Shown: piece after piece, positions 1 through 25,451 of the stretch
How positions within the stretch are numbered: the stretch's first letter is position 1
Layout of the letters: each line of letters begins with the position of its first letter
Source: a virus
Virus record (IMG/VR): IMGVR_UViG_3300006931_000029
Coordinates: 93,124 to 157,123 of that record
Strand: one strand, 5' to 3'
Length of the DNA: 64,000 bases
Translations under genes and position numbers: made by a program
The notes under the pieces: model-generated
Seen by the model: the letters and a program-made list of their open reading frames with translations, nothing else
Database searches by the model: none
Told to the model about the DNA's origin: nothing

Positions 1-379
1 ACTGGGCATCAACCGTAATGTGACTGATCGGGCTGCGCAGGTCGACCTTACCATCAGCGGGGTGTTCCAGAAGTCCGAACGACGCCCGACGCGTCATCAA
101 TTGCTTGAGGACGGAACCTTCCGAGAGGTTCTTTTCCCAAACTTTCTTGGAATATCGGCGGCGATTGCCATTGATACAGTCGCAAACCGACAGAGTTCCT
201 GGAATACGCTTTGAGGTAAGTCCAGTCTCGGGGTTTTTCGACTCCACGATCGCTGCGCGATCAGGTTTGAAGTCGAACGTGTCTTCGAGGAGAATGCGCG
301 GCACCCTCTAAGCATGAAAACATATACTCTCCCACGCTCAGGTCAGACTCTACGCTTCACTGGTTATTGAACGGCAAAG

Positions 380-7543: not shown

Positions 7544-8887
7544 TTACTCGTCGTCGAGATCGATGTCGGCATCGTCATCTTTCACGTCTTCGTCTCCTAC
7601 GACGTTGTCGCTGAACATGATTTCTCGGGCCTTCAGCCAAAGCAAGTCGAGATCAGCTTGATGGTCTTTGTAGAAGTTAACCCATTCTTTCTTCGAAGGA
7701 AGTTCAGGATCGTTCGTTGCTTTGCCCCGATCGTCGTCTTCTTCCAAGCTGCGCCCAGCCGATTTCTTAGACGATGCTGGTTGAAACGTGCTGGTGGTGA
7801 TGCCGAATTTGGCGAACTGCATCGTGAACCGCTTGGTCGACGGCGAGTATTTGGCGATGCCCAAGAAAATCATTGTCTCGAGCCGAGAGTAGAGATTGTT
7901 GAACCCACCCTCGAACAGGATAACGAGCCGACCCTCGCGAAGCGGCTTGATTTGCCGATTCTTCTGCGTGCGAAAGCCAATGAGATACCCTTGGGAGAAC
8001 CTGGCGCCGCTCAGGCGATAGTTCTCGTTGAGCCTGAACATAAACACCCGCAGAGACGAATAGAACCGCAGAGCTTTGCCACCGAAGGTAGAATAGTCGT
8101 CGTTTTGCGGAGTGCTGTAGTGAACCTTCCGCTGGCCGGGAGCCGTCTGCTTGAACGCGTCACGGACCTGGTTAGTGCAAACCATCAGCACGTTGTGCCG
8201 GTTGATTTCACGCTGCATACGACGGAACCCTTCAGACAGCATCTTCGGTTGGCGCTGGAAGTCTTCCTTGTTCCACTCCTTGGTCATCTCCTGCTTTGAA
8301 GACGTGCCGGCGATAGTGTCGACCACCAGAACCACGAAGTACAGAATGGGCTCGCGTTTCTCGTCCTTTGCGGCCTTGTTTTCCTCCAACTGTTTTTCCT
8401 TGATCTTCTCGATGACAATGTCCGACATCTTGAAAATCTGGTCGACGGTATCGCAACGAGCAATGATGCAATCAAGCGTCACTCCTTCGATGATGATCTT
8501 TTCATCTTCGTCTACCGATTGCTCGTTGTCAATGAAGACTGTGGTCACGGCAATCTTGGCCGGATCAATTTTCGTCAGCGACATCACGCCGCCGACCACT
8601 GACCGTCGGTAGATTTCTCCGATTTGTGCCTTGATCAGAGAGCGGATGCAGAGAGCGCTTTTGCCGCACGCCTCAAGCCCGTAAAGCTCAACGATTCGTC
8701 CGAAAGGAAGACCGCCGCACGCCTCATCCATCGGATCAAGCCCAGTTTTGAGGACGTACTCAACCTTGGACAGGATGTCCTCAGTCGAAAGGGCAACGTC
8801 AAACGTACCCTCTTCGTTTGAATCCTTCGGGCGTTGGCGCTTTAGTTGGCGCGCGACGATCTGATTAAGGTTGGGAATTTCGCTCAT
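7544..8887 (-). CDS. RecA/UvsX/Sak4-like recombinase ATPase
   Basis: GGLPFGRIVELYGLEACGKSAL (RecA Walker A context GRIVEIYGPESSGKT), FIDNEQSVD, and VVLVVDTIAG (RecA VVDSVAAL Walker B-like). Confidence 0.6.
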   Translation of the reverse strand: MSEIPNLNQIVARQLKRQRPKDSNEEGTFDVALSTEDILSKVEYVLKTGLDPMDEACGGLPFGRIVELYGLEACGKSALCIRSLIKAQIGEIYRRSVVGGVMSLTKIDPAKIAVTTVFIDNEQSVDEDEKIIIEGVTLDCIIARCDTVDQIFKMSDIVIEKIKEKQLEENKAAKDEKREPILYFVVLVVDTIAGTSSKQEMTKEWNKEDFQRQPKMLSEGFRRMQREINRHNVLMVCTNQVRDAFKQTAPGQRKVHYSTPQNDDYSTFGGKALRFYSSLRVFMFRLNENYRLSGARFSQGYLIGFRTQKNRQIKPLREGRLVILFEGGFNNLYSRLETMIFLGIAKYSPSTKRFTMQFAKFGITTSTFQPASSKKSAGRSLEEDDDRGKATNDPELPSKKEWVNFYKDHQADLDLLWLKAREIMFSDNVVGDEDVKDDDADIDLDDE

Positions 8888-11110: not shown

Positions 11111-12520
11111 TCAAGGCTCGTCGCGTGACAGCTTTTCGAAGTCCGCGTCGCTGATACCTCTGCCTTTCTTGCGTGGCTTCTCCTTGGAATCACTCTTACC
11201 GCCGTCCTCTGGTTCGTACGGGATTTCTTCCCCTAAGTCGACAGTCATAGTTTCAGGATCGACCTTGCCTCTGAAGTGCTGAAACGCGGCGCCATGACGA
11301 TTGACAAACACAAAGGTTCTGAAGATGTTTTCAGCATATTCGTCGTCAGTCATACAAAGACCAATAGCGACGTCGACGATACCACCTTTCGCGAACGCTC
11401 CTTGAAACGCCTTCATGTTCGGCACGCGGTCGTTCGTCGCCTCTTTTGTCATACGGTCCGGCATGATGACGGGCACTCTGAATTCTGCTCCCAAGGCTCT
11501 GGCTTCAGTGTAGACACCAGCCTGGCGGAGATACTCTTTTTCGTAGTTGCCGGACGGCAAGACGGTGTCCGCGTAATCGATGATGATCGCTCGCAGTTTC
11601 TTGAGACCGAACTGTTGAATAGCCAGTCTGGCGTGGTTGCGAATCGTGGTGATTGTAGCAGTTCCGGCAGGATACCCCTTGATGACTAAGTTTCCAGCCA
11701 CCGACGTGACAACAGCCGTTTTGGTTAGCTCCTTGAACTTCTCTGGATTTTCGTAAAGGTAACTCATCCCTTTCTGGGTGATGTTCGTCATTCCACGAGC
11801 AAACGCCAGCTCTTGCGTGATTTCGCACGGGTAGTAGAGCACGTCGCCGCCCTGCATAGGGCTAATGATGTTCAGCGCGAGATTCATGCACACGGCCGTT
11901 TTGTAGCGCTTCGGAGGAGCCACGAGTGTCACCAGCCATCCAGGACCCCATCCTCGCTTCCAAATGCGATCCCACTGCGGGTAGCCTGTGAGAGTGCCGT
12001 AGTCGGCTTTCGTGATCTTGTCGATGACATGGGCGTAGTCCATGTGGAATACGAGTCCGAGGTCGTCTAGATTTTGGCCGACTTGAAGCGCGTCTTGAAA
12101 CAACTTTACGAACCCGTCCTCTGGAGATTTCTTCTCTTTGATCAACTCAACGCACTTTTTGATCGCGTTGATCGTTGCGCGTTCTCTCGCAAAAGTTATG
12201 ACTCTTGAGACAACAAACTCAGCATCCGACGTGTCGTGCTCCCTCAACTGGGTGATGTATTTGATGACTTCAGCGTCATCAGCCAGCGACAACTTCTTGT
12301 TTTGGTCTAGGGCGAGTTGCTTCAGCGTCGCCCACGACGGAGGCTTGCCGTACTTTCTGACGTAGTCTAACAGCGCATAAGCGATAACGGTAGCCTGTGC
12401 ACCTTGAAAATAGCTAGGCTGCAGAATTTCGCCGTACGCCAGAAACTTATCTGGATGGGCGATGAAGTGAGATATGATCGAATCTTGAAATTCGTCATCT
12501 AACGCAAAGTGATCGGGCAT
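11111..12520 (-). CDS. DnaB-like replicative helicase
   Basis: N-terminal DnaB-like helical domain pattern (DFY..H..IF...L), P-loop-like PPKRYKTAV, Walker B-like IIIDYADTV. Confidence 0.45.
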   Translation of the reverse strand: MPDHFALDDEFQDSIISHFIAHPDKFLAYGEILQPSYFQGAQATVIAYALLDYVRKYGKPPSWATLKQLALDQNKKLSLADDAEVIKYITQLREHDTSDAEFVVSRVITFARERATINAIKKCVELIKEKKSPEDGFVKLFQDALQVGQNLDDLGLVFHMDYAHVIDKITKADYGTLTGYPQWDRIWKRGWGPGWLVTLVAPPKRYKTAVCMNLALNIISPMQGGDVLYYPCEITQELAFARGMTNITQKGMSYLYENPEKFKELTKTAVVTSVAGNLVIKGYPAGTATITTIRNHARLAIQQFGLKKLRAIIIDYADTVLPSGNYEKEYLRQAGVYTEARALGAEFRVPVIMPDRMTKEATNDRVPNMKAFQGAFAKGGIVDVAIGLCMTDDEYAENIFRTFVFVNRHGAAFQHFRGKVDPETMTVDLGEEIPYEPEDGGKSDSKEKPRKKGRGISDADFEKLSRDEP

Positions 12521-12526
12521 GCGTCT

Positions 12527-13498
12527 TCAAAGAACGCCAGCCGCGTGCAGACAGCTCACGTGCTGAACAGCCAACCCTATTCTGCTCCAAAAACGTACGG
12601 CATCGGTCACAATCTCAGGCGCTTCAAAATCATCTGGCCTGAAACCGTGTCTGTCCAGCACCTCGGTCAACGCCTGGTGAAACATCTTCGACCTTAGTTC
12701 GAAGTACGCCGTAGCAACGTCTTTGCGCTTGCGCAACCATCCGTTTGTCCGGTGAATTTCAGCTCGGTGTTTTATGATGGCAGGCGATATTGGAGGATGC
12801 GAATCGTGCCACTCGTAGTAGGATGGTTCGAGACACAACCACGTAGAGTCAAGCTTGAGTTCATTTTCGGCGTAGAATTTTTCAGTGGGCGACCCACTAA
12901 ATCTCAGCTTGTGACCGACTATCCACATTCCGGCAAGGACTTCGCTGTTCAAAATTCTAGCTTTGGCTCTTGTCACTTCGTCTCCACCAGTCAGGGTAGC
13001 AAGACTCTCGCTGTCGAAGGTGCCGTATTTGTCTCGAGCAAGGCTTCTGAAATCGTTTACAAGCGTCGCAGCGCCTTTCGCGAAAAGATAACTGGCGTAG
13101 AACCTAGTTCCTGGCGCTAGCTGCTTTCTGGCCAGCATCACGCACATCATGAAAAGCTTGATCGAACAACGAGCCTGTTCTGCTGCTAAGATCAACTTGT
13201 GTTCCGCATCCTGAAATCTACGCAAAGAATCTGGTTGTTCATCTCCAAAGACCAGACGATAACACAGCTTGTAAAGCGAATCGACGTCATCGGACTCGTG
13301 GACAGAAAACTTCGACAGGTCTGCCGGAACAAAGTCGAACTCGATCTTGCTCAGTCGGACCTTTCCTCTCCTCACGACGGAGACTCCTCTGCATTCTTTC
13401 GAGTGCGGACATTTTTGGCAAACTTGGTCAGCGCTGTCGTATTCTACCCCGTAACACTTGAGCGGGACATCGACCGCGATTCGAGAAACATTCGGCAT
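12527..13498 (-). CDS. hypothetical Zn-binding protein (possible primase-associated)
   Basis: ORF 12527..13585; internal ATG at 13498 (MPNVSRIAVD) avoids overlap with polymerase gene; CQKCPHSKEC motif. Confidence 0.4.
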   Translation of the reverse strand: MPNVSRIAVDVPLKCYGVEYDSADQVCQKCPHSKECRGVSVVRRGKVRLSKIEFDFVPADLSKFSVHESDDVDSLYKLCYRLVFGDEQPDSLRRFQDAEHKLILAAEQARCSIKLFMMCVMLARKQLAPGTRFYASYLFAKGAATLVNDFRSLARDKYGTFDSESLATLTGGDEVTRAKARILNSEVLAGMWIVGHKLRFSGSPTEKFYAENELKLDSTWLCLEPSYYEWHDSHPPISPAIIKHRAEIHRTNGWLRKRKDVATAYFELRSKMFHQALTEVLDRHGFRPDDFEAPEIVTDAVRFWSRIGLAVQHVSCLHAAGVL

Positions 13499-16400
13499 GG
13501 CTATTAAGAAACTCAAAGAGAAGAAAAAGACGGTTCCTAAATTTGAACGTGACCTGGCAGAACAGACTGCCAACCACGGGTTCAAACCCGGGCCTAATCA
13601 TCCGCTGTGCTTGAAGTGTGGACTGCACCACAACGGTGCGAGAAATCCGTACCTACCGCCCTCTGGAGAAACTAAGCGGCCGCTCATCACAGTAATCGTG
13701 GATAGCGTTTCGCGTGGTGAAGACGAAGCCAACTATTTTGGTGCAACCGGAACCACCGGCCTGATGAAGAAGCTCATCAGAGACATGGCACCGGACTTGA
13801 AGCTCGACATCGAACGAATTAGGTTTGTGCCATTGACCAGATGTTCAGCTAGAGAAGGCAAGGTCAATTTCAAAACCAAAGGTAACTGGTGCCGCTGGTT
13901 TACAGTCGACGACCTACGCAATAATCCGCCAGAGATGGTGATGGCAATTGGGACTACGGCTCTCGGAGCGCTGTGTCATAAGTCTAGCGCGCAAGATTGG
14001 TCTGGTCGTCTGCTAACATGGAGGGGTTGGCCAGACGACTGGCTGATGAATCCGAAATATCTCGACGGCCACCACCACTTTGGAGCTAGGCCAAAGACCG
14101 ACGAACGCATCCCGCTGTTTGCCCTTCAAGCGCCGAAGCTGATTTACGGCACGCAGAATCCTCGAGTCATCAAGAAATGGCGAGACCAAGTTCGTGCCGG
14201 ATTAGAGATGGCGGTCAGAGGAGTGAAACCGCTCATCTACGATCGGCCATGGTGGAAACTTTCCACGAATCCAGACGAGATTGAGCAAATACTCAATTCC
14301 ATCAGAGACGGCACGTTCGTCCAGTACGACACGGAAACGACAGGTCTCGAGCCATTCCGCAACGGGTCAAAGATCGTTTTCCACATGTTCCGGTGGATCG
14401 ACGAAAATGGAAATCCACAATCGATTGGTTTTCCGTGGGACTATCCAGAGAGCCCACTGCTGCCGTTCATTAAGCGGCTAACGCCAGTCGTCCTCCGCAC
14501 TCTGGCGCGCATCAAGATCGAGGGGCATAACATCACCTTCGACATTCTTTTCAACGTAGGGACAATGGAAGGAGCTGACCTGAATGTCCTCTCGAGAGCA
14601 ATGCACGGCGACACGCTGCACATGCTTTACACCATCCGGCAAGATACCGGATCAAGAGGATTGGACATAGTCGCGTATGATTGGGCTCCGACTCTTGCCG
14701 GCTACGAAGAAGAGATGGTTCTTCTCATCGGTCAGTACCCCGAGCTTCTTGATCCGGGAGCAGGAGCAGGCGGTCACTACGCTCGGTGTCCAACCGACAA
14801 ATGGGATTCGCACCTGAAGCCGTACGTCATGGGCGACGTTGAAGTGGTTGCTGAGGCTGCTCCTTCCATGCGGAAGCGGTTGGAGACGGCGAGAATATAC
14901 CAGATTCCTCTGGCGCACCCGACCATCAGCGGCAAATTCAGGTGGTACGAAACACCGAAACGTGACTGGGTGTACGACAAGATCATGCTGCCAGCACAGC
15001 GCACGCTGACTGCGATGATGGCTAGAGGCATGCATGTCGACGTGGCAGAGGTTGCCATGCAGGAAGATTTGATGCCGAAGGCCATCTCGGCAGCGAAAAA
15101 CAAGTTACGAGCATCGCATCCGAAGATTGTGGCATGGGCAGAGCAGATGGAATCAACCGATCCTGAGTGGAAGTTCGACCTCGAGTCAAAAGATCAGCTC
15201 AAGAAAGTGCTCTACGATTTGATGGGTTTGCCGATCAAGCGGCTAACTAAAGCAGGGCGCCAGCAACTAGGCGATCTAGACGAGCGAGAAATGAAAGCTC
15301 TAGATCGCCCCACGCTGATGCAGTTTGCATCCGCAGACAAGTTTACGCTCAGCTCGTTGTCTGCGGCACACCCTGAAGTTCGTCCACTGGTCGATTACCG
15401 CAAACAACACAAGGCTTACACGACCTATGTCAGGTCCATGCGAAACCACTTTGACGCTCTTGTTGACAAAAAGAAGCGAGAAAAGCCTCCCTATTTGATG
15501 GACGACATGTGCGTCCACGCCCAGTTCAACCAAACCGGCACGCGCTCTGGACGCCTTAGTTCCAGCAATCCAAACCTTCAGCAGCTTCCTCGTGAATCTC
15601 TGGTGAAGCGGATGTACGACTCTCGATTCGGAGCGGACGGCGTCATCTACCAAGGCGACTTGTCTCAGATTGAATTGCGACTTATCGCCTGCGCCTGCGG
15701 CGACCCAACGATGGTTAAGGCGTACTGGGACAAGGTCGACCTTCACTCGCTCACTGCCAGCAAGATTTACAGGACCGAGTACGAGAAGTTCGAGAAGACC
15801 TACATGTCGTGGTTGCAGAAAAACGGCAAGGAAAAAGAGGCCAAGGACCTCGACAGTAAGCGTAAAGTTGCCAAGACTGTTAACTTCCTCACCGGCTACG
15901 GCGGCGGTCCACTAGGTCTTCAAACTTCACTTGCTCAAAACGGAGTCTACGTTTCTCTTGAGGAGTGCGAGGACATCATCGAGAATTTTTTCAACGTTTA
16001 TCCGTCGCTCAGGCGTCACATCGGTCTCTACAAGGATTTCATCCTCAAGCACGGCGTAGCAGTGTCAATCTTTGGACGAGTTCGAATCTTCGAGGAAGTT
16101 TTCTCTGACGACAACGAGTCGAAGTCAAAAGCTCTTCGGTCTGGTTACAACCATTTGATTCAATCGACCGCCTCTGACATGATGCTCGTGTGCATCACGG
16201 TCATCGAACATTTGATGCGAGACATGAACCTGGAATCCATGCTTGTTTCCACCGTGCACGATTCGATGGTTATCGACGCAAAACGAAACGAACTTCAGCA
16301 GGTTCACGAGATTTGCGATCAAGTCATCAACAACATTCCTGAGATTCTTTCGCTCTTCTTTGGCGAACCCTATGACAGGTCGTGGATCATCACACCGATC

Positions 16401-16517
16401 GAAGGCGATTTCGAAGTCGGCAAGAATTACCTCGATCAGAAGAAGGTCGTCGCAAACAAAGACGGTAGCGTTGATTGGGACTCTCTTTTGACCGATAAGG
16501 TCGAAGAGAAGAAATAA
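13497..16517 (+). CDS. family A DNA polymerase with 3'-5' exonuclease domain
   Basis: Exo I motif YDTETTGL; motif A DLSQIELRLIA; motif B KRKVAKTVNFLTGYGGGP; motif C STVHDSMVID; ATG at 13497 (MAIKKLKEK) in frame within ORF 13458..16517. Confidence 0.8.
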   Translation: MAIKKLKEKKKTVPKFERDLAEQTANHGFKPGPNHPLCLKCGLHHNGARNPYLPPSGETKRPLITVIVDSVSRGEDEANYFGATGTTGLMKKLIRDMAPDLKLDIERIRFVPLTRCSAREGKVNFKTKGNWCRWFTVDDLRNNPPEMVMAIGTTALGALCHKSSAQDWSGRLLTWRGWPDDWLMNPKYLDGHHHFGARPKTDERIPLFALQAPKLIYGTQNPRVIKKWRDQVRAGLEMAVRGVKPLIYDRPWWKLSTNPDEIEQILNSIRDGTFVQYDTETTGLEPFRNGSKIVFHMFRWIDENGNPQSIGFPWDYPESPLLPFIKRLTPVVLRTLARIKIEGHNITFDILFNVGTMEGADLNVLSRAMHGDTLHMLYTIRQDTGSRGLDIVAYDWAPTLAGYEEEMVLLIGQYPELLDPGAGAGGHYARCPTDKWDSHLKPYVMGDVEVVAEAAPSMRKRLETARIYQIPLAHPTISGKFRWYETPKRDWVYDKIMLPAQRTLTAMMARGMHVDVAEVAMQEDLMPKAISAAKNKLRASHPKIVAWAEQMESTDPEWKFDLESKDQLKKVLYDLMGLPIKRLTKAGRQQLGDLDEREMKALDRPTLMQFASADKFTLSSLSAAHPEVRPLVDYRKQHKAYTTYVRSMRNHFDALVDKKKREKPPYLMDDMCVHAQFNQTGTRSGRLSSSNPNLQQLPRESLVKRMYDSRFGADGVIYQGDLSQIELRLIACACGDPTMVKAYWDKVDLHSLTASKIYRTEYEKFEKTYMSWLQKNGKEKEAKDLDSKRKVAKTVNFLTGYGGGPLGLQTSLAQNGVYVSLEECEDIIENFFNVYPSLRRHIGLYKDFILKHGVAVSIFGRVRIFEEVFSDDNESKSKALRSGYNHLIQSTASDMMLVCITVIEHLMRDMNLESMLVSTVHDSMVIDAKRNELQQVHEICDQVINNIPEILSLFFGEPYDRSWIITPIEGDFEVGKNYLDQKKVVANKDGSVDWDSLLTDKVEEKK

Positions 16518-16559: not shown

Positions 16560-17303
16560 ATGTTAGACCAGCCATTGCAAATTAGGGCGGTCGTAAAAGG
16601 CCAGAATCGCTACTGCGGACCGGCCGCTGTTTCGATCATAGCCGGTATTGATACGACGCGAGCGGCTCGGCTCCTCAGGCAGGTAAGTGGAAAGAGAATG
16701 ATTTGCGGTGTTCACAATCATCACGTGATCGCAGCCCTGAAGAGGCTAGGTTACGAACTCCGCCCTACGCGTTTCCACGGTGGAATAACGTTTGCGAATT
16801 GGTTCAGTGGCATCGACCATGACCCTTCCAGGTTGTATCTCATCTGTGCAGGCCACCATTACTCAGTCGTTCAAGGCGATCAGTATTGCTGTTCCCAAAC
16901 TGTGAAGATCGTCGCGGTCTCTGAGGCTCCTCATCGCAGAGCTAGAATGCAGAATCTTTGGACTGTCCACAGGGTCGCAGAGATCGACTCTGAAACAGTG
17001 GTACAGTCGCCTCCAAAAGACAACTCGTGGTTGAAACGAATCACCGTGTCTCGCAGGGCAAAACAGTTTGGCGTTGAGATCGACGACCAGTCTCGACAAG
17101 GAGGTGTCATCTGGGTTTATCCTCCCGTCGGGTTATTCGACGACAATGGCAACGATCCTCAAGACCCATACAACGACGAGCACTTCCACGATTCGTGGGA
17201 AGAAGCAGAGAAAGCCGTTGAAGCCTATATCGCTCTGAAGATTCGGCCAGCAGTCGTTCTTCCCGAAGCAGCATGCCCGAACTCGCAGAATCCTTCATCC
17301 TGA
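16560..17303 (+). CDS. hypothetical protein (possible Cys/His peptidase-like)
   Basis: 247-aa ORF; CGPAAVSIIAG ... HHV/GHHY arrangement; speculative. Confidence 0.4.
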   Translation: MLDQPLQIRAVVKGQNRYCGPAAVSIIAGIDTTRAARLLRQVSGKRMICGVHNHHVIAALKRLGYELRPTRFHGGITFANWFSGIDHDPSRLYLICAGHHYSVVQGDQYCCSQTVKIVAVSEAPHRRARMQNLWTVHRVAEIDSETVVQSPPKDNSWLKRITVSRRAKQFGVEIDDQSRQGGVIWVYPPVGLFDDNGNDPQDPYNDEHFHDSWEEAEKAVEAYIALKIRPAVVLPEAACPNSQNPSS

Positions 17304-18145
17304 CGTCTCAGTTGGCCCAACTATTTGGGGTTCCGTTTGTCACAGACAGCCAACTGAAACTTCCGCGCAGGTTGGAATTGCAGCAACACGGTTCAGGACC
17401 GTACAAGCTGGTGATTCACGACTTCGTTTCCATCTGCGGCGACCAGTCAATCGAAGAGGAACTGGCAGAAGCAATGCCGACGCGTGTTCAACACCAAGGG
17501 AAGAAAGGCTGGATTCTGTGGAAGACGAAGAACGGCGTAGTCGAAACAGAAATACGATACGGGATGACCGGCAGTTTTGCTCTCGAAAAGACTCAGCACA
17601 CACGGTTGGAGTTTAAGAACGCAACAGGGTCGATCTACTTCAACGACATCAGGAAGTTCGGCGGAATTGTGACGAACGGGCATCCTGTCGCTGCGTCGGC
17701 GACATCAAATCTTAACGTCGAACAGGTCTACTACAGCCTGGTGGAATATCGAGATTCCACGATAAAAGAGCTGTTGACTGAACAAACGTTCCTACTCAGC
17801 GGAGTCGGAAACTACCTGGCGAACGAAGTTTGTTTTGCCACAAAAATCCATCCTGATTCTAGCGCCGGTCTTGTCACGTTTCCAGAGTTTGAAAAAATAC
17901 TGGTTGAATTGAAGGCGCTCGTAACCGAGAGCGTCGAGTTAGGAGGCTGTACTCTCAGGGACTTCAAGGATGTGATGGGTCGACCCGGGCAGTTTCAAAC
18001 GCGTCTCAGAATCTATGGCAAGAAAACGTGCCCAGTTTGCAGCGGTCCTGTCTCCGTCGTCCGTCGGCCCAATGCGACGACTAGCTGGGTTTGTCCAACG
18101 TGCCAAGACCTCAGGCGCTACCATCCACTGCTAAGTCCGAGTTGA
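17273..18145 (+). CDS. Fpg/Nei-family DNA glycosylase (formamidopyrimidine/endonuclease VIII-like)
   Basis: N-terminus MPELAES (catalytic Pro2-Glu3 of Fpg/Nei); C-terminal CPVCSGPVSVVRRPNATTSWVCPTCQ = C-x2-C-x16-C-x2-C zinc finger. Confidence 0.6.
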   Translation: MPELAESFILTSQLAQLFGVPFVTDSQLKLPRRLELQQHGSGPYKLVIHDFVSICGDQSIEEELAEAMPTRVQHQGKKGWILWKTKNGVVETEIRYGMTGSFALEKTQHTRLEFKNATGSIYFNDIRKFGGIVTNGHPVAASATSNLNVEQVYYSLVEYRDSTIKELLTEQTFLLSGVGNYLANEVCFATKIHPDSSAGLVTFPEFEKILVELKALVTESVELGGCTLRDFKDVMGRPGQFQTRLRIYGKKTCPVCSGPVSVVRRPNATTSWVCPTCQDLRRYHPLLSPS

Positions 18146-19347: not shown

Positions 19348-19896
19348 ATGCCTATCGTATTCGAAAAAGCTCCTCAGGACGTCCGGGAACTCCTTCAACT
19401 TGTCATCCAAGAACATCACCGGGACCTGGCGGACGCTAACGTCAATGTCGGAGTCTTGATGCAAACCAAGTTCGACAACGATGATAACGAGATTCCTTCT
19501 TTGAAGTGTCACGGGGCCATGGCGAACGCCGTCATCAAGGTTGTTTCTCGGAAAGATCGCACTCACCGCAACGAAGACTCCGAGATCGTGGTTGACGCCG
19601 TTATCTGGAAGACGTTGTCGGAGAAATGTAAACGAGCGCTGCTTGACCACGAGCTGACCCACCTCGTCGTGAAACGGGATCGCAAGACGCAGAAGTTTGC
19701 GTTGGACGATCTTAACCGTCCGCGCCTCGCTATGATCCCTGACGACTTCACGTTGACGGGATTCCTCGACGTCGTTCGCCGCAACGGTGACGCGGCTCTG
19801 GAGTACCAGTCGGTTTCCCGCGTTCACTTCGCAGTCATGGAAGCAGCAACGCAGGCCGGCAAGAAGGTTGCAGAAGAGATGGCCGCAGCGTCCTGA
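19348..19896 (+). CDS. hypothetical protein
   Basis: 182-aa ORF; stop overlaps next ATG (TGATG). Confidence 0.45.
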   Translation: MPIVFEKAPQDVRELLQLVIQEHHRDLADANVNVGVLMQTKFDNDDNEIPSLKCHGAMANAVIKVVSRKDRTHRNEDSEIVVDAVIWKTLSEKCKRALLDHELTHLVVKRDRKTQKFALDDLNRPRLAMIPDDFTLTGFLDVVRRNGDAALEYQSVSRVHFAVMEAATQAGKKVAEEMAAAS

Positions 19897-20177
19897 TGAC
19901 TGAAGTCGTCCATTGTCGACGCGAACTTTTCGACGTCTTCATTGGTCGCCCGTCGAAGTGGGGTAATCCGTACGTCGTGGGCCGTGACGGTTCACGAACC
20001 CAAGTCATTCAAAAATATCGAGCCTGGGTTGTGAACCAACCGCAACTGATGGCTGCGTTACCCGAACTGCGTGACAAGATTCTCGGCTGTTACTGCAGGC
20101 CATTGGCCTGCCACGGCGACGTGTTGGTTGATCTTATCGCCACCGAGGTGGTGAATCAGGACAAGACTCAGTCGTAA
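19896..20177 (+). CDS. DUF4326-like small protein
   Basis: WGNPY...YRAW...GCYCRPLACHGDVL pattern characteristic of DUF4326 family. Confidence 0.45.
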   Translation: MTEVVHCRRELFDVFIGRPSKWGNPYVVGRDGSRTQVIQKYRAWVVNQPQLMAALPELRDKILGCYCRPLACHGDVLVDLIATEVVNQDKTQS

Positions 20178-20628: not shown

Positions 20629-20968
20629 GACGAGGTTTCTTTTCTTTTTCTGGTGCGTTCAGTTTTCTGATGTCGTCGTCAGTGAGAAAGTCGTCTTGGT
20701 CGAAATCACTCCACTTGAGTCCCATCGCCGCCAGATTGTCCATCTCATCGATTACAGAATCGAGCTTGTCCTCTCTGACTCTGGCGTTCAACCAAACCTG
20801 GAGCTTCTCTAGGTAGAAGGCCCGGTGTTTTTGCCAACTGTCAGCAAAGTAAAAGTGCCCGATTTCATTCTCGATAAAATCGTAGGCAAGGTCATGTGCC
20901 TCAATGTCGTATCGCGGATGATCGTCAAAGGCAAATTCAACTAAGCTCTTGGCTCTCGAGTGTGGCAT
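20594..20968 (-). CDS. hypothetical protein
   Basis: 124-aa ORF. Confidence 0.4.
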   Translation of the reverse strand: MPHSRAKSLVEFAFDDHPRYDIEAHDLAYDFIENEIGHFYFADSWQKHRAFYLEKLQVWLNARVREDKLDSVIDEMDNLAAMGLKWSDFDQDDFLTDDDIRKLNAPEKEKKPRRAKLLQQPNAT

Positions 20969-21488
20969 CTCCCTTTACGTACGTTCGAATGCTGCCGAGA
21001 CAGAAAGTACTCTTGTTCGCCTCCAGCAGAATCCGAAGGTCCTGCCTGGTTATCGTCCCTCTATCAACCAAGGTGTCGATTGCATCCTTGTCTAATCCTG
21101 AAGATACACACGAAAATTCGGCGCTGTGACCGCAGCTAAATAGCCAAAGAGCAACGGCGTGACGAGAACGGTTGATGCCGCCGGAACAGTGGACAAACGT
21201 CGGAAGTCTTGCTCCAAAACAATAGTCAAGGGCTCGCTTGATTCCAAACAACGACGTGGTCGGCCACTTGGCGTATTCGTCAATTGGAAACCACAGCGCT
21301 TTGATCCACGGCGAAGCGTCAAACGTGAAGTACGGGCTGTCGGTGACATTGATGACGGCACGAAAATTCTCCAGCAACCATGCTCGTTGCTGGTGGATTT
21401 CTAGATTTTCAACTGAACCAATCGTGATACCGAAATCCGGAACCACGACCTTCACCCACGTCGGTTTACTGGAGGTCGTTAACGCCAT
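20937..21488 (-). CDS. dual-specificity/tyrosine protein phosphatase (CX5R)
   Basis: VHCSGGINRS active-site signature HCxxGxxRS. Confidence 0.55.
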   Translation of the reverse strand: MALTTSSKPTWVKVVVPDFGITIGSVENLEIHQQRAWLLENFRAVINVTDSPYFTFDASPWIKALWFPIDEYAKWPTTSLFGIKRALDYCFGARLPTFVHCSGGINRSRHAVALWLFSCGHSAEFSCVSSGLDKDAIDTLVDRGTITRQDLRILLEANKSTFCLGSIRTYVKGDATLESQELS

Positions 21489-21876
21489 CTAAACGTCTTC
21501 CCGTGTTAGGTTCGATTTGGACAGCTCGGTCGTCCCACAATTCCGTCATCGCAAAATCCTTTTGACACGTGATCGGAAGGACAACGCCAAAGTGCTTCTC
21601 ACACCATTTTCTAATGTGAATCGCTGCCTGCATCGCGTCGCTCTCTCGGTCGTTGGCGCCAACGAACTGCTCAACCCGATCTTCAGGGTGAATCATGTTT
21701 AGCGGCCAGACACGAGCTGTGAAGATTCGAACTTTCTTCCCTTGGACGAGCCAACGTCGAAGACGCAGAGCCATCGCTGGCACTGGTTCTCCGATGTGTT
21801 CAGCGTTTTTCCACCCCTGGTAATCGGCCAAAGTTCCGTCGAGGTCAACCCCGATCCATCCGCCAATGTGAGCCAT
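21466..21876 (-). CDS. HAD-superfamily small phosphatase-like
   Basis: GVDLDGTLA (DxDGT motif I), IFTAR (motif II-like). Confidence 0.45.
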   Translation of the reverse strand: MAHIGGWIGVDLDGTLADYQGWKNAEHIGEPVPAMALRLRRWLVQGKKVRIFTARVWPLNMIHPEDRVEQFVGANDRESDAMQAAIHIRKWCEKHFGVVLPITCQKDFAMTELWDDRAVQIEPNTGRRLDGVNDLQ

Positions 21877-23177
21877 TAGATTTCGTAGAGTCCGTGCAGT
21901 CGTGGACCATCCTTGATGGCTGCAAGATGCGCCTTCGTGTAGAGGATATTGTGGTCCTTGTGGAACTGCGACGGAAAGTAATTCTCAAGGTGCACAATCT
22001 GGAAACGGCACGTCGAGCCGAGATGTTTGATGTAGTGCTGCATGTGTTTCTTCGTGTAGTACCAGAAGCTGTTTGAGTTCCAGAACGACACGTGGCTCGG
22101 GTCTTGGTACGCTCCACGCCCATCAGTTGACGGCACTTCGATCAAGAACAAACCTCCGTGGTGCAGAACTCGGTACGCCTCATTCATAAACTGCACCACC
22201 TTGTTAGGATGAATGTGTTCAATCAAATCCTGAGCGCGTAGTGCTCCGACGCTGTTGTCTGGAAATGGCCACGTCTCTTCGAGATTGGCGATCACGGGCG
22301 CGTCGTGAACGTCGACTCCTTCCCAGCCAGGAGGAGGGTTGATTCCGCCGCCGAGATCGAGACAGCGAAGACCTTGCCGTTTCCAAAAAAAGACAGCAAA
22401 ATCTTGGATGAACCTGGCGTGGACTTGCCACGTCAGCTGTTCGATCAATTTCTGGTGCTTCAACCACGTGTTGTCGCCGTGGATCAGATATTTGTAGAGC
22501 ACCTTCTCGATGTGGTAAAAATTGCCCATGCTCATCTGATAGAGCTTGCACATCAGCTCAAGATCATCGCAAACCAGCATGTTTTCGTTGTGCCCTCCGA
22601 CAGCGTTGTAAGCGTCCATTCTCCACGCTCGAACATGGTCAGGAGCATACCAGATTCTCGTGACGTTTTGAGGAATTGCCAGCGGGTGAACAGCCACTCG
22701 GTGAGTTTCCACTGTGGCACCATGAAATTCGCGCTCAGTGTATTCCCAGCCATAAGCCGGACCATAAATTTCAGGTTTGCCGTCGGCGTGAATTCGCACA
22801 GCGTCAGAGAAAACAAAGACGGCGTTAGTCTTCAGGAACGCGGCCAAAACTTCTTCCAGACAATCTACTGATAGCTCGTCATCGTGGTCGAACTCGACGG
22901 CGAAGGGACTCATGGCGTGTTGACACGCCTTCTTTTTCAAAGCGCCGACGTTGATCGAACCATCTTCGTTTTTCTTACCCTCAAACGGGAAAAATTTGAC
23001 GCGCTGATCGTTCTCGACTATTGCGTAGCATTCTTTAGACGAGTTCTTTTGCAGGATTTTGCCGTTGAGCACCACGATCCATTCCCAGTCAGTAAGCGTC
23101 TGGCGCTTCAAACTTTGGTAGGCTTGCTCAAGCCACTTAATCGAGTTGGTTGGTGTGATAACTGAAATCTGAGCCAT
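21876..23177 (-). CDS. bifunctional glycosyltransferase family 2 / SAM-dependent methyltransferase-like
   Basis: N-term ISVITPTNSIKWLEQAYQSLKRQT (GT2); C-terminal part LDLGGG...HHGGLFLIEVP resembles class I methyltransferase fold. Confidence 0.5.
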   Translation of the reverse strand: MAQISVITPTNSIKWLEQAYQSLKRQTLTDWEWIVVLNGKILQKNSSKECYAIVENDQRVKFFPFEGKKNEDGSINVGALKKKACQHAMSPFAVEFDHDDELSVDCLEEVLAAFLKTNAVFVFSDAVRIHADGKPEIYGPAYGWEYTEREFHGATVETHRVAVHPLAIPQNVTRIWYAPDHVRAWRMDAYNAVGGHNENMLVCDDLELMCKLYQMSMGNFYHIEKVLYKYLIHGDNTWLKHQKLIEQLTWQVHARFIQDFAVFFWKRQGLRCLDLGGGINPPPGWEGVDVHDAPVIANLEETWPFPDNSVGALRAQDLIEHIHPNKVVQFMNEAYRVLHHGGLFLIEVPSTDGRGAYQDPSHVSFWNSNSFWYYTKKHMQHYIKHLGSTCRFQIVHLENYFPSQFHKDHNILYTKAHLAAIKDGPRLHGLYEI

Positions 23178-23211: not shown

Positions 23212-25113
23212 TCACATCGGAATCACGGTCACCCTCATGTCCATCGATCCAGGAGTTAAATCGCCGGCAAGCCAATTCTGAAGGTTCACACCAACAGTTC
23301 CAGATGACACAACGTTTGCGGTCACGACGGCGCCAGTAGGCCAAGCGAAGCCGTCGATCCGGTTGACCATCGCTGCGTCGTTAATGTCTACACCGCCAAG
23401 CGGAACGTTCAGATCGGACGCCAGGCCGGAACCAACGGTTCCAAAATCGTGAGACACGGTTGCTGTGAGTAGCGAGATTGAGCCTTGAAATCCTTGAGGA
23501 CCTTGAAATCCCTGCGAACCTGTGCTTCCTTGAGCGCCGGTATCTCCTTGCGCTCCAGTGCCGCCGGCTGCACCTTGAAAACCTTGAAAGCCTTGTGTAC
23601 CCGTTGAGCCTTGAAATCCCTGCGCGCCAGTATCTCCCTGCGCGCCCTGGAAACCTGCTCCTTGAAAACCTTGCGTTCCAGTCGTCCCTTGAAATCCTTG
23701 GCGGCCCTGAAAACCCTGAGCGCCCGTCACACCTTGCGATCCTTGCGCACCAGTAACGCCAGACGGCCCGGCAGGAACGAAGTCAACGACGATGTCTTCA
23801 AGGTCGCCGAAAGTTCCTTCAGTCAAGAACGGAGACACCGTGAACTTCCTGTAGCCTGTTGCCGTCACGAACAGCGTGACGTTGAAAAATCCAAAGACGC
23901 TAGGATCAACTGGCGAGTAGAAGTGGAAAATACCCTTCAGAGTGCCTGATCCGACAGAGTTAATAGCACCAAGCCATGCAGAGACGTCGACGTTGTTGTC
24001 GTTAGTCGTGCTGAAATACATTTCCGTCACGGAATCAGGATCGGCGTTGTTGAACGCAATCAAGCCGAGACCAGGGTCTTGGTCCACGGTGGACGTCGAA
24101 AAAGCGTACGGTTGGAAGTTTCCACCGAGATTGCCTTGCGGTCCTTGAAACCCTTGAGCGCCAAGTCCGCCTTGATTTCCAAGCGGGCCCGGAATTCCTT
24201 GTGGACCCGACGAACCCTGCGGACCGGCGATGACGCTGGGAGCGCCTTGCGGTCCTTGAAACCCTTGGAAACCCTGAAGTCCCTGGCTGCCGACGTTTCC
24301 TCTAGCTCCTTGAAACCCTTGCGTTCCCTCAGAGCCTTGAATGCCTTGATTTCCCTGTGATCCGCGCAAAAGAACTTGAGCCGACAGTTCGCTAGGAGTT
24401 TCCGTAGACGTCGTGTCTGCGCCTAGAGTTCCTTCAATGTTCTGCTGCGTAGCAACGTCCAACATTCCGATGATGTCTTGGCGGACCTGTGCAAGATTAT
24501 CGACAGCGGCCTGCTGTTCAGCAGTCAAGACTTTCGCATTTTCGCCACCGAGACCAATCCCATTTCGATAATTCTCCTGTGTCCGTTGAATAACCGGTTG
24601 CGTGTACACGCCGACCTGATTCGTGGCGCCGCAAATTGCTCTGGCGCAGTTGACTGCTTGAATGCCAGGGCCAATTCTCTTTTCAAACTCCTTTGCCGCA
24701 TCGCTGATCATGCCGTCAACTCGCGCCTGTAGTTGACCCAATTTTGCGAACGGATGCGTGTCGAGATTTCGCAGCAGCTTCAGGTAGGCTTCGTTTACGG
24801 CGTTCTGAAGATCGATCAACGCCTTGCCGTTGAACGGCGGCAAGAGTCCAGGACACAAAGCTTGAAGCTGATTGTATTTGTCGATGTCAACCAGCACGAT
24901 TGCGGTTAACTTAGACGGATCGACCAGAGGAATGTCTAGGCCTGCGTTGAAAAGCAAGTCGGCGACTCGACGCAGTGCTGCGAAGCGACCAATCAACTTG
25001 TTAAGCTGGTCAGTCGCGCCGACCGCGATCGCGTCCAGCATGGCGCAGAGTTCTTGTGGCGTGGACTGAGGCATTTTTCTAATTACAACGTTACTTAGGT
25101 CTAAGACCTCCAC
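23212..25113 (-). CDS. collagen-like triple-helix repeat fibre protein
   Basis: two blocks of G-x-Q/G-x-x repeats (GFQGAQGSQG...), Pro-poor; contains an approx 110-aa non-collagen domain (…ATGYRKFTV…) also repeated in 46014..48248. Confidence 0.6.
   Translation of the reverse strand: MEVLDLSNVVIRKMPQSTPQELCAMLDAIAVGATDQLNKLIGRFAALRRVADLLFNAGLDIPLVDPSKLTAIVLVDIDKYNQLQALCPGLLPPFNGKALIDLQNAVNEAYLKLLRNLDTHPFAKLGQLQARVDGMISDAAKEFEKRIGPGIQAVNCARAICGATNQVGVYTQPVIQRTQENYRNGIGLGGENAKVLTAEQQAAVDNLAQVRQDIIGMLDVATQQNIEGTLGADTTSTETPSELSAQVLLRGSQGNQGIQGSEGTQGFQGARGNVGSQGLQGFQGFQGPQGAPSVIAGPQGSSGPQGIPGPLGNQGGLGAQGFQGPQGNLGGNFQPYAFSTSTVDQDPGLGLIAFNNADPDSVTEMYFSTTNDNNVDVSAWLGAINSVGSGTLKGIFHFYSPVDPSVFGFFNVTLFVTATGYRKFTVSPFLTEGTFGDLEDIVVDFVPAGPSGVTGAQGSQGVTGAQGFQGRQGFQGTTGTQGFQGAGFQGAQGDTGAQGFQGSTGTQGFQGFQGAAGGTGAQGDTGAQGSTGSQGFQGPQGFQGSISLLTATVSHDFGTVGSGLASDLNVPLGGVDINDAAMVNRIDGFAWPTGAVVTANVVSSGTVGVNLQNWLAGDLTPGSMDMRVTVIPM
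23470..23770. repeat. collagen-like GxQ coding tandem repeat
   Basis: 9-nt periodic cc(t/c)tg(a/g)aa(a/t)cc-type units; all frames open. Confidence 0.55.
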
Positions 25114-25136: not shown

Positions 25137-25451
25137 ATGAATCACGTCACCAGAGACCAATTAGCAGACACCTTGGCCTCCAAGCAAGGGCTCACAACGA
25201 TCGAAGCGCGCAAGACCGTCGACGTTTTTATCGAAGCGCTGGCCGAAGCGCTGGCCGGTGGAAAGGACGTTGAGCTACGAGGACTTGGTTCCTTCACGGT
25301 GAAACGCACGCGCCCACGCCCTGGTCGCAATCCGATGAAGCCTGAACAGCAAGTCATCATACCTTCGAGACTCGTTGTCAAGTTCCGACCGGGCAAGATC
25401 ATCAAAGGCGGTCTTACTAAGCTGAACGAGGCCGCCGCTCCTGTGACATAA
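25137..25451 (+). CDS. HU/IHF-family DNA-binding protein
   Basis: RGLGSFTVKRTRPRPGRNPMKPEQQVIIPSRLVVKFRPGK matches the HU/IHF arm signature (GRNPKTGE..I.IPA..V.F..GK). Confidence 0.65.
   Translation: MNHVTRDQLADTLASKQGLTTIEARKTVDVFIEALAEALAGGKDVELRGLGSFTVKRTRPRPGRNPMKPEQQVIIPSRLVVKFRPGKIIKGGLTKLNEAAAPVT

Follow-up and report, generated by a model that had tools for sequence, protein, structure and literature searches.

A phage-borne Fpg-type DNA glycosylase gene beside a family-A DNA polymerase gene and the replacement of its zinc-finger arginine

Gene identification and family assignment

The open reading frame located at positions 17273-18145 (+) of the analysed DNA (the whole 64 kb stretch, hereafter the window) starts with ATG, ends with TGA and encodes 290 amino acids with the N-terminus MPELAESF. 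It was assigned to the Fpg-type (H2TH superfamily) DNA glycosylases/AP-lyases based on the translation, Pfam, NCBIfam, PHROG 21295, PDB sequences and AF2/Foldseek comparisons, and it is a real, full-length Fpg-type repair glycosylase gene.

The sequence-only reading of this locus had proposed an Fpg/Nei family glycosylase, and the sequence profiles, the predicted fold and the kept catalytic residues bear this out. The H2TH profile, on which the family assignment had been made to depend, was found in Pfam (PF06831) with an E-value of 2.6e-12 and 47 bits at a gathering cut-off of 34.7. Of the two other Pfam models proposed for checking, Fapy_DNA_glyco (PF01149) also exceeded its cut-off (E 4.8e-06, 27.6 vs 25.5 bits), spanning residues 56-131 only, while zf-FPG_IleRS remained below it (11.7 vs 21.3 bits). 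The whole N-terminal beta-sandwich domain was recovered by the AF2 model and the Foldseek match to MutM. The model (pLDDT 93, pTM 0.91) superposes on the full-length MutM proteins of Thermus thermophilus and Geobacillus stearothermophilus with TM values of 0.78-0.84.

Judged by profile scores, the protein is nearer to Fpg than to Nei within the Fpg/Nei (H2TH) superfamily. The NCBIfam Fpg models gave 103-113 bits (E 1.9e-32) and the Nei model 32.7 bits; the equivalog cut-offs for Fpg (NF002211/TIGR00577, 112.9 vs 212 and 105.8 vs 203.3 bits) and the curated cut-off for Nei (NF007763, 32.7 vs 252 bits) were all missed. The best PDB sequence matches are MutM/Fpg proteins, with T. thermophilus MutM at an E-value of 1.1e-23. 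The Pfam, NCBIfam and PDB profile statistics rule out a chance match to the family. Of the 208 segments of the window that extend for at least 100 aa without a stop, only one contains the MPELAE motif and only one the Cys4 motif.

Catalytic residues and domain architecture

The N-terminal catalytic motif M-P2-E3-L-A-E6 (17273-17290, +) with the catalytic Pro2 and Glu3 described earlier is present. No variation is seen at P2, E3 and E6 across alignments of 17-40 sequences, and these residues match the invariant P2/E3/E6 of canonical Fpgs. Pro2 is the predicted nucleophile once the initial Met is removed. The second Pro usual in the Fpg N-terminal motif (P5) is replaced by Ala, and both Glu3 and Glu6 are kept. 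An insert of approximately 19 aa is present in the N-terminal domain (17384-17440, +), opposite which the hhalign alignment shows a gap in canonical Fpgs; in the AF2 model, it is directly followed by two short helices at residues 51-54 and 59-63 with a pLDDT of 86-92. Because this insert shifts the numbering, the catalytic Lys is found at position 77 (17501-17503, +) instead of 57; it aligns to K57 of E. coli Fpg, itself invariant in canonical Fpgs, and does not vary in any of the alignments.

The Fpg-type intercalation triad Met98/Arg127/Phe129 (17564-17659, +; codons 17564-17566, 17651-17653 and 17657-17659, respectively) was identified in the alignments. All three residues are invariant or nearly so and align with the GM(S/T)G and DxRxFG motifs of canonical Fpgs; the protein itself carries the Fpg-type DxRxFG and GMTG motifs, and E. 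coli Nei differs at the triad positions. The H2TH domain (PF06831) comprises residues 149-230 (17717-17962, +), in which Lys165, equivalent to E. coli K155, is kept and Asn180, the phosphate-binding Asn equivalent to E. coli N169, is aligned and invariant. The H2TH motif itself reads G-N-Y-L as in Nei, whereas it is G-N-I-Y in Fpg; the clade has G-N-Y-L/M, and Tyr171 of G-N-I-Y is invariant in the canonical Fpg set.

A capping-type loop, CTLRDFKDVMGRPGQFQ, is formed by residues 226-242 (17948-17998, +), which align without gaps to the Fpg proteins of E. coli and Salmonella. In E. coli Fpg, the loop that caps 8-oxoG, which lies between the last helix of the H2TH domain and the finger, is equally long, the likeness being judged on length alone; the wider stretch of residues 224-250 also aligns to E. 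coli Fpg without a gap, and E. coli Nei is deleted there. Towards the C-terminus, a motif match on the translation gave a Cys4 zinc-ribbon finger, C253-x2-C256-x17-C274-x2-C277 (18029-18103, +), whose hairpin strands lie at residues 261-263 and 271-273 in the AF2 model. Thus, the Cys4 finger previously read from the sequence stands, and its central spacer is corrected from 16 to 17 residues. The finger is followed by a conserved basic C-terminal tail, DLRRYHPLLSPS (18107-18142, +), which is seen in the alignments of the clade and absent from canonical Fpgs, and the last four residues of which have low pLDDT.

Canonical Fpgs have 20 invariant positions, of which this protein keeps 18 according to hhalign and the other alignments: P2, E3, E6, K77, G100, D125, R127, K165, G177, G179, N180, E185, G225, G239, C253, C274, C277 and Q278. 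Since these positions are conserved across clade members that are 34-67% identical, purifying selection on catalysis is indicated.

Replacement of the finger arginine

The hairpin loop of the finger reads R264-R265-P-N-A-T269 (18062-18079, +; R264/R265 codons 18062-18067, T269 codon 18077-18079). In four independent alignments (MAFFT, phmmer, hhalign), Thr269 stands in the column of the invariant finger Arg, which is R259 in E. coli when Met is counted. This column contains Arg in 54/54 non-clade homologues and Thr, Pro or Ser in 17/17 clade members, and the substitutes for the finger Arg across the subfamily are Thr, Pro, Ser or Gln. The loss of this residue is a point that the sequence-only reading did not contain.

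According to a review (PMC9266487), the finger Arg is "absolutely conserved" across the family, NEIL1 included, and is needed to pinch the lesion phosphates as the base everts. Its replacement may change or lower the predicted activity, unless Arg264 or Arg265 takes over the function of the lost Arg, as may be the case. Both residues lie across the hairpin turn from T269, and most clade members have a basic residue at hairpin position -9 or -10.

Distribution and phylogeny

The earlier remark that Fpg is not usual in phages agrees with the database counts, as only 30 of 50,697 phage records gave a match, and several of these are bacterial contigs or contamination. Among the significant viral fold matches in BFVD, five of six were giant viruses and one was a phage. 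Fpg genes have already been annotated in SP-10, Nachito, YungSlug, SP-15, LIS04 and phage G; the occurrence of Fpg in phages is thus rare but precedented. A search for a characterised phage Fpg in the searchable literature returned none.

The phylogenetic analysis placed the protein in a separate monophyletic subfamily with 96% bootstrap support that consists of metagenome sequences only. No relative closer than 28% identity was found among the 185,579 species genomes of GTDB, no relative of the clade closer than 27-28% was found in IMG/VR, and reference phages contained no near-identical DNA. In the alignments, the whole of this virus-borne subfamily has the finger Arg replaced, and its H2TH motif is Nei-like.

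Two groups of records were set aside. The Fpg of Campylobacter phages A11a/A18a, considered as a link to 7-deazaguanine genomes, proved to be contamination: the matched ORF is the mutM of E. coli with coaD behind it, and the record is labelled "UNVERIFIED". The Salmonella records with Fpg matches in the phage collection were bacterial contigs.

Phage origin and genomic neighbourhood

The window is part of an uncultivated phage of approximately 200-225 kb with T4-type head genes. At its left edge (5-304, -), the window contains the 3' part of a gene for a T4-type prohead protease (Peptidase_S77), showing 75% identity over 100 aa to the Peptidase_S77 protein of contig L014 in tblastn. Synteny with L014 extends over the next four genes, and a major capsid gene of the Gp23 type is also present on that contig. 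The prohead-protease homologue at the edge together with the synteny with a Gp23-bearing contig is direct evidence of the phage origin of the window. Several PHROG matches were also obtained in the window, and identical genes are present on 199 kb and 225 kb contigs from several samples.

The placement of the gene in a phage replication block, as proposed before, is supported by this phage evidence and by the helicase, polymerase and RecA-like genes nearby. A DnaB-like helicase gene (11111-12520, -) and a RecA-like gene (7544-8887, -) precede a family-A DNA polymerase (PolA) gene at 13458-16517 (+; Pfam DNA_pol_A E 2.1e-62, PHROG 17 E 8.9e-104), the likely ATG start of which is at 13497. PolA is the first gene of a rightward string that continues with ORF247 (16560-17303, +), the conserved upstream partner of Fpg, whose 3' end overlaps the start of the fpg gene by 31 nt. 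A UDG-like domain at the PolA N-terminus was considered and dropped, as neither Pfam, searched with E values as high as 1, nor the PDB sequences gave a match. The reassignment of TAG was likewise rejected; reading TAG as a sense codon merely merges antisense ORFs.

ORF247 has an N-terminal C39-like cysteine-peptidase fold with invariant Cys19 and His100 and a C-terminal domain of no assigned type. The assignment comes from the fold search only (AF2 pLDDT 86; Foldseek matches to the peptidase domains of ComA and PCAT1, E 5e-4, TMt 0.55-0.59), and no sequence match was found in Pfam, PHROGs or the PDB (phmmer). Fifteen homologues were found, and the ORFs that precede Fpg in L001, L005 and L014 are 42-62% identical to ORF247. 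Downstream of Fpg, a PhageMetallopep-domain protein with a HELTH motif is encoded at 19348-19896 (+; PF18894, E 9.2e-15), and it is 49% identical to the L014 copy. In six of the seven related contexts read (L001-L004, L014 and L019), a gene of this type follows Fpg at a distance of 0-1.2 kb; it was not called in the L005 context.

PolA precedes Fpg in the same orientation in L001-L005, L019 and L021, and the string of PolA, C39-like peptidase and Fpg, with Fpg last, is conserved down to 34% identity. Because the gene is the last in this co-directional, tightly packed string within a replication-recombination module, Fpg is probably made together with the replisome, and co-expression of PolA, ORF247 and Fpg would be expected. 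Promoter and terminator scans around the operon gave counts within the range of shuffled sequences. Genes for an AP endonuclease, a ligase or a 3'-phosphatase of a known type were not identified anywhere in the 64 kb.

Predicted role and alternative explanations

Taken together, the gene probably encodes a functional, bifunctional Fpg/Nei glycosylase/AP-lyase of a phage of approximately 200-225 kb, standing last in the PolA string and repairing phage DNA. Its most likely role would be to repair phage DNA as it replicates, through base excision or at AP sites; both the glycosylase/AP-lyase activity and its substrate are inferred. Repair of oxidised bases and processing of modified bases, the two roles offered in the sequence-only reading, may apply. 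Points against the main reading are the replaced finger Arg, the scores far under the Fpg equivalog cut-offs, the Nei-like H2TH motif, the lack of identified partner genes for the later repair steps in the window and the lack of a characterised phage Fpg in the searchable literature. In the mechanism of the family, which would apply here, a damaged purine (an 8-oxoG or Fapy lesion) or an abasic sugar would be flipped from the helix, and Met98, Arg127 and Phe129 would fill the vacated gap and read the orphan base. The Pro2 amine would then attack C1', with Glu3 assisting, yielding a Schiff base, and beta,delta-elimination would leave a one-nucleotide gap to be refilled by the phage polymerase and a ligase. 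In this way, a large phage genome could be kept clear of oxidised purines and abasic sites while replicating.

A specialised enzyme in place of general oxidised-purine repair, either an AP/dRP lyase or a protein recognising phage- or host-specific modified purines such as 7-deazaguanine derivatives, is conceivable but rather doubtful. Its abasic targets could arise, e.g., from host antiviral glycosylases or uracil excision, and the flanking C39-like peptidase and metallopeptidase might resolve covalent enzyme-DNA intermediates. The clade-wide loss of the finger Arg in a monophyletic group with 96% bootstrap agrees with such a specialisation, and so does a NEIL1 mutant in the equivalent Arg, which reportedly retains lyase activity. 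Moreover, an Arg-less relative, P0078, is found beside QueC, QueD and QueE, which belong to 7-deazaguanine synthesis, and ORF247 and PhageMetallopep flank Fpg in most of the relatives read. The title of Doublie et al. (2004) names the (zincless) finger as required for glycosylase activity, and a phage with 7-deazaguanine-modified DNA was restricted by overexpressed cellular Fpg (bioRxiv 10.1101/2025.10.29.685425), both of which are consistent with specialisation. However, the QueCDE context is one short contig of a distant relative, tblastn with QueC, QueD and QueE of L015 revealed no homologue in the window or in the loci and flanks of the clade, and no other base-modification gene was recognised among the ORFs scanned. 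Both Lys residues that are linked to 8-oxoG excision in E. coli, K57 and K155, have equivalents in the protein, the capping loop is kept as well, and the link to the peptidases is one of adjacency only. It is unlikely, in our opinion, that the Arg-less subfamily represents, in place of a housekeeping-style glycosylase for oxidised purines, a phage-specific enzyme with altered eversion or substrate, e.g., one that processes AP sites or modified purines of the 7-deazaguanine type, maybe together with the flanking peptidases. Within this Arg-less, phage-specific reading, countering host antiviral glycosylases or policing base modification would be possible purposes.

The absence of the phosphate-clamping Arg and the zinc-finger Pfam score under the cut-off are also what a catalytically impaired, DNA-binding Fpg remnant would show, its role being non-enzymatic, e.g., lesion or structure sensing at the replisome; yet Pro2, Glu3, Lys77 and the triad are invariant down to 34% identity, which would be unexpected without catalysis, and the basic residue at hairpin -9 or -10 in most clade members also makes such a remnant very unlikely. 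Phage DNA-cleaving enzymes are often aimed at host DNA, and the position of the gene in an early or replication-type block would suit the nicking or degradation of host DNA for shut-down or nucleotide supply. The lesions attacked by Fpg-type enzymes are rare, however, these enzymes are unable to degrade DNA that is free of damage, and nothing found points to a chemical difference between phage and host DNA, so that this anti-host use is highly improbable. Finally, the view that the gene is a cellular mutM, present through a misassembled or bacterial contig or as a recent passenger acquisition with no phage role, draws on the several "phage" database matches that proved to be bacterial or contaminant mutM. 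It is barely credible for this locus, given the absence of any relative above 28% identity in the GTDB genomes, the deep and distinct branch formed by the clade, the synteny kept in at least seven divergent phage contigs and the phage head-module genes in the window.

If active, the enzyme would bring base-excision repair into the replication module of a large phage, and such phages would handle part of their own genome maintenance and would not be wholly reliant on the host. The subfamily is also a natural experiment in which the one finger residue deemed indispensable for lesion eversion in Fpg/Nei enzymes has been replaced throughout a lineage, and it allows one to ask whether the opposite strand of the hairpin now supplies the phosphate clamp or whether there was a shift to lyase-only activity or new substrates. 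If it is inactive or ordinary, the gene is simply an auxiliary repair gene of a type that is rare in phages but has been seen before.

Comparison with known systems

The closest known systems are compared here by structure, sequence and gene context. The bacterial Fpg/MutM proteins of T. thermophilus (1EE8), E. coli (1K82), G. stearothermophilus (1R2Y) and L. lactis (1PJJ) match the model with TM values of 0.74-0.84 and have the architecture of beta-sandwich, H2TH and Cys4 finger in common with the phage protein, along with the catalytic Pro, Glu and Lys, the Met/Arg/Phe triad, the K155 equivalent and the capping-loop length. However, the identity is 24-28%, and the phage protein scores below the NCBIfam equivalog cut-offs. 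It differs from the bacterial proteins in the N-domain insert of approximately 19 aa, Ala for P5, GNYL for GNIY, a finger loop longer by one residue, Thr for the finger Arg and the extra basic C-terminal tail, and its gene is phage-borne and near a DNA polymerase gene.

The annotated phage Fpgs, i.e., those of the Bacillus phages SP-10, Nachito, YungSlug, Goe26, SBSphiC and G (gp292), of SP-15 and of the Listeria phage LIS04, are likewise Fpg homologues of large tailed phages, and the PolA of the window is closest, at approximately 25%, to the Herelleviridae polymerases of the SP-10 group. Nevertheless, these Fpgs show only 21-27% identity to the protein described here, fall on separate branches and keep the canonical finger Arg, and their genes are located near lysis, structural or helicase genes and not beside a polymerase gene. 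The giant-virus Nei/Fpg proteins (Mimivirus MvNei1, 3A42/3A46, and MvNei2, 4MB7; Orpheovirus, Catovirus and Tupanvirus) are also virus-encoded H2TH glycosylases with the same fold, but they belong to eukaryotic viruses, are Nei/NEIL-like and give weaker sequence matches (E 3e-6 to 0.02). E. coli Nei belongs to the superfamily of the phage protein and, like it, has the H2TH motif as GNYL, a form also present in mammalian NEIL1. Unlike the phage protein, E. coli Nei lacks the capping loop and the Arg/Phe pair of the triad and keeps the finger Arg that the phage protein has lost.

Identification and conserved residues of the Fpg protein

Running from an ATG to a TGA codon, the open reading frame at 17273-18145 (+) specifies a protein of 290 aa with the N-terminus MPELAESF. 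The sequence-only reading had assigned it to the Fpg/Nei family, an assignment now borne out by Pfam, NCBIfam, solved-structure matches and the predicted fold. The MPELAE N-terminus with the catalytic Pro2/Glu3, on which that reading relied, was seen in the translation, and both residues are kept from canonical Fpgs. A pattern search of the translation also found the four cysteines of the proposed C-terminal zinc finger, as C253-x2-C256-x17-C274-x2-C277, with a spacer of 17 residues rather than the 16 first written. Of the window's 208 segments of 100 aa or more without a stop codon, only one contained the N-terminal motif and only one the Cys4 motif.

The Pfam profile check that had been proposed gave matches above the cut-off for H2TH (47 bits, E 2.6e-12; cut-off 34.7) and Fapy_DNA_glyco (27.6 bits; cut-off 25.5), while zf-FPG_IleRS remained below its threshold (11.7 vs 21.3 bits). 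The NCBIfam Fpg models scored 103-113 bits (E down to 1.9e-32), far under their equivalog cut-offs (≥212 bits), and the Nei model scored 32.7 bits. PHROG 21295, described as 'unknown function', matched at 1.6e-29. Among solved structures, the sequence was closest to MutM of T. thermophilus (1EE8; E 1.1e-23) and to Fpg of E. coli (1K82). The AlphaFold2 model, built from a 40-sequence alignment (pLDDT 93, pTM 0.91), superposed over its full length on MutM/Fpg, with TM scores of 0.78/0.84 to 1EE8 and 0.79/0.83 to 1R2Y.

The 17 members of the clade of virus-borne relatives (34-100% identity), including the protein studied here, were aligned with canonical cellular Fpgs, E. coli Nei and the Fpgs of reference phages; the profile-profile alignment of the clade with canonical Fpgs (hhalign) had a probability of 100%. 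The canonical set has 20 invariant positions, of which 18 are retained: the N-terminal catalytic residues Pro2, Glu3 and Glu6, Lys77 (equivalent of E. coli K57), Gly100 of the GM(S/T)G motif, Asp125 and Arg127 of the DxRxFG motif, Lys165 (equivalent of K155), Gly177, Gly179 and Asn180 of the H2TH motif, Glu185, Gly225, Gly239, and Cys253, Cys274, Cys277 and Gln278 in the finger region. The second finger cysteine, C256, is retained too and is only nearly invariant in the canonical set, as are Met98 and Phe129 of the GM(S/T)G and DxRxFG motifs. The loop from the GG motif to the finger is exactly as long as the one that caps 8-oxoG in E. coli Fpg; in Nei, this stretch is shortened by a deletion. 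Clade-specific features are the replacement of the second proline by alanine (MPELAE), a beta-sandwich insert of about 19 residues, at whose C-terminal end, and just beyond it, the model has two short helices (residues 51-54 and 59-63), a Nei-like G-N-Y-L in place of G-N-I-Y in the H2TH motif, an invariant Cys226 and a basic C-terminal tail past the finger.

Loss of the finger arginine

The arginine of the finger is termed 'absolutely conserved' in the Fpg/Nei family and forms a clamp on the two phosphates on either side of the lesion, which base eversion requires (PMC9266487). In the protein studied here it is replaced, a departure that the sequence-only reading overlooked: the column, five residues ahead of the third cysteine, holds Thr269, a placement on which three MAFFT alignments, phmmer and hhalign agree. 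In the first search, Thr, Pro or Ser occupied this column in 17/17 clade members versus Arg in 54/54 other homologues. An exhaustive search of 1.84 billion cluster representatives found Arg in 110 of the best 145 non-clade representatives; 22 of the 145 are zincless, most of them showing Arg in the equivalent sequence stretch, and the cases without Arg cluster among the proteins with the greatest similarity to the clade. In a neighbour-joining tree (100 bootstraps), the proteins without the arginine, that is, the clade and its relatives P0072, P0073, P0074, P0076, P0077, P0078, P0082, P0217 and P0218, formed a monophyletic group (96% bootstrap), within which the clade and P0072 were joined at 100%. 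E. coli Fpg and the phage Fpgs of SP-10/Nachito and SP-15/LIS04 lie outside this group.

The finger hairpin loop is one residue longer than that of E. coli, and its three-residue turn (R265-P-N-A-T269) is preceded, on the side of the first strand, by Arg264-Arg265. Canonical Fpgs have a turn of this kind between a basic residue at -9 and the Arg at -5 (for example K-H-A-Q-R in E. coli), so the two positions should be cross-strand neighbours. We infer that the clamp arginine may have been relocated to the other strand of the hairpin, a segment that has the lowest pLDDT (85) of the folded part of the model. As the superfamily architecture and catalytic residues are present, while the finger arginine is missing and the scores lie below the Fpg/Nei equivalog cut-offs, the protein is filed as a divergent, virus-associated variant of the Fpg/Nei superfamily, presumably Fpg-like in working, and not as a MutM orthologue.

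Gene neighbourhood

The location of the gene in a phage replication block, as first proposed, agrees with the nearby RecA-like gene (7544-8887, -), DnaB-like helicase (11111-12520, -) and family-A DNA polymerase PolA (13458-16517, +), which belong to a replication-recombination block, and with a phage head gene at the window edge. PolA, ORF247 (16560-17303, +) and Fpg run in the same direction, with a gap of 43 nt between the first two and an overlap of 31 nt between the last two; a convergent gene overlaps the 3' end of Fpg. Scans for promoters and terminators around the three genes gave counts within the range of shuffled sequence. The order PolA-then-Fpg is kept in seven related loci (L001-L005, L019 and L021), down to 34% Fpg identity, and also, in one variant, where PolA carries inteins. 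In L005 (925-9125), the DNA polymerase (1603 aa) and the neighbour at the helicase position (805 aa) both have intein/homing-endonuclease domains. The first ~280 residues of the window's PolA (1019 aa), at 13458-14300 (+), had no Pfam or PDB match, and PHROG 17 spans its residues 80-996. Its nearest reference-phage polymerases, at ~25% identity, are those of the SP-10-group Herelleviridae, several of which also carry Fpg.

ORF247 is conserved in L001, L005 and L014 at 42-62% identity (62% in L014, where it lies directly 5' of Fpg and no PolA occurs within the 10 kb read upstream); a 237-aa ORF takes its position in L019, and it is missing in L004. Pfam, PHROG and PDB sequence searches gave no annotation. 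In a fold search, its model (pLDDT 86) resembled the C39 peptidase domains of ComA and PCAT1 (E 5e-4, TMt up to 0.59), and Cys19 and His100 are invariant; the predicted fold suggests a C39-like cysteine-peptidase domain followed by a C-terminal domain without assignment.

Six of the seven related contexts read have a PhageMetallopep protein (HELTH motif) 0-1.2 kb downstream of Fpg, and in L005 no such gene was called; the window's copy is directly followed by a 93-aa DUF4326 protein (both within 19348-20177, +). The distant relative P0078 is found on a 6.5-kb contig (L015 404-5440) beside NT5C, QueC, QueD (PTPS) and a radical-SAM QueE-like gene. These genes form a 7-deazaguanine synthesis cluster of the kind typical of modified-guanine phages.

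Source genome and other features

A prohead-protease homologue, synteny and contigs sharing ORF247 show the source to be an uncultivated phage with T4-type head genes and a genome of roughly 200-225 kb. The nearest outgroup Fpg, P0072, is encoded by the 191-kb contig L014, which also has genes for a Gp23-type major capsid protein and a Peptidase_S77 prohead protease; the left edge of the window (5-304, -) encodes a homologue of this protease (75% identity), and the four genes that follow show synteny with L014. The window's ORF247 occurs unchanged on seven metagenomic contigs, including those of 199,264 and 224,954 bp, and relatives lie on contigs of 147, 222 and 229 kb. No nucleotide similarity to reference phages was found, and most other ORFs of the window had no match in Pfam or PHROG. 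Neither IMG/VR nor the 185,579 GTDB species genomes contain a member of the clade, the best matches there having 27-28% identity.

Further annotatable genes lie at 20937-23177 (-), 23212-25113 (-), 46014-48248 (-), 31101-33587 (-), 3086-3769 (-) and 25137-25451 (+). Among such genes of the window are a DSPc-like Cys-phosphatase, which the four related loci L001-L004 also have in the vicinity of Fpg, a glycosyltransferase-2/methyltransferase fusion, two collagen-repeat proteins (probable fibres), an SPFH/NfeD pair, a 2OG-Fe(II) oxygenase and an HU-like protein. An amber suppressor tRNA with the anticodon CUA and an encoded CCA end, labelled tRNA-Pyl by ARAGORN, lies at 39458-39533 (+). The 53 long ORFs taken as genes end in TGA (26), TAA (26) and TAG (1); reading TAG as sense merges antisense ORFs only, so no gene of the window needs TAG read-through. 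The Glu(UUC) tRNA call at 40690-40785 (+) has an unusual length of 96 nt and may contain a long insertion or intron, or be a mis-call.

Proposed function and alternatives

Based on the conservation of Pro2, Glu3, Lys77, the Fpg-type intercalation triad, the K155 equivalent and the capping loop, the protein probably acts by the standard Fpg mechanism, in which lesion eversion would be followed by attack of the N-terminal proline, formation of a Schiff base and beta,delta-elimination. Oxidised purines or abasic sites in the phage DNA are the likely targets, and the gap left behind would be filled by the neighbouring polymerase and a ligase, for which no gene was recognised in the window. The missing finger arginine could also reflect altered specificity or mechanism, with a bias to AP-lyase activity or with modified purines as substrate. 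The latter would fit the QueC, QueD and QueE genes adjoining one distant Arg-less relative, P0078, and the reported restriction of a 7-deazaguanine phage by overexpressed cellular Fpg (bioRxiv 10.1101/2025.10.29.685425); however, genes of this type were not found in the window or in close relatives, and we regard such a change as possible but unlikely.

A non-catalytic remnant of Fpg is improbable given the deep conservation of the catalytic residues, and a role as an anti-host nuclease appears even less plausible. That the gene is cellular or a contaminant is hardly credible, in view of the low identity of the best GTDB match, the separate tree branch and the phage head genes in the window. 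The standard repair activity on phage DNA remains the preferred reading.

Comparison with known phage and viral Fpgs

The first remark that such glycosylases are not usual in phages holds: Fpg/Nei matches were found in only 30 of 50,697 phage records, at least five of which are bacterial DNA or contamination. The significant viral fold matches in BFVD were six, one from a phage and five from giant viruses. The Fpg of 'Campylobacter phage A11a' (L017 4809-6304; MG065691.1, UNVERIFIED) was rejected, as the ORF reads as E. coli mutM and the next as coaD, which indicates E. coli contamination or misassembly of the deposited sequence. The annotated Fpg homologue of Bacillus phage G, gp292 (L010 3713-4555), begins 'ML..SLQPKV', and its aligned N-terminus shows no Met-Pro-Glu catalytic motif; the start may be mis-annotated, or the copy inactive. 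No paper characterising a phage Fpg was found in the literature, and the SP-15 genome paper makes no mention of its Fpg gene.

Phages with a repair glycosylase are uncommon but already known, which makes the basic finding modest: Fpg is annotated in the Bacillus phages SP-10, Nachito, YungSlug and Goe26, and in SP-15, LIS04 and phage G. Unlike the protein described here, these annotated Fpgs keep the finger arginine, belong to other branches of the tree and do not adjoin the polymerase. What the analysis adds is a coherent, metagenome-only Fpg subfamily that has lost the 'absolutely conserved' finger arginine; it lies on phage contigs wherever enough context is readable and has become a fixed part of the replication module in a novel lineage of large phages.
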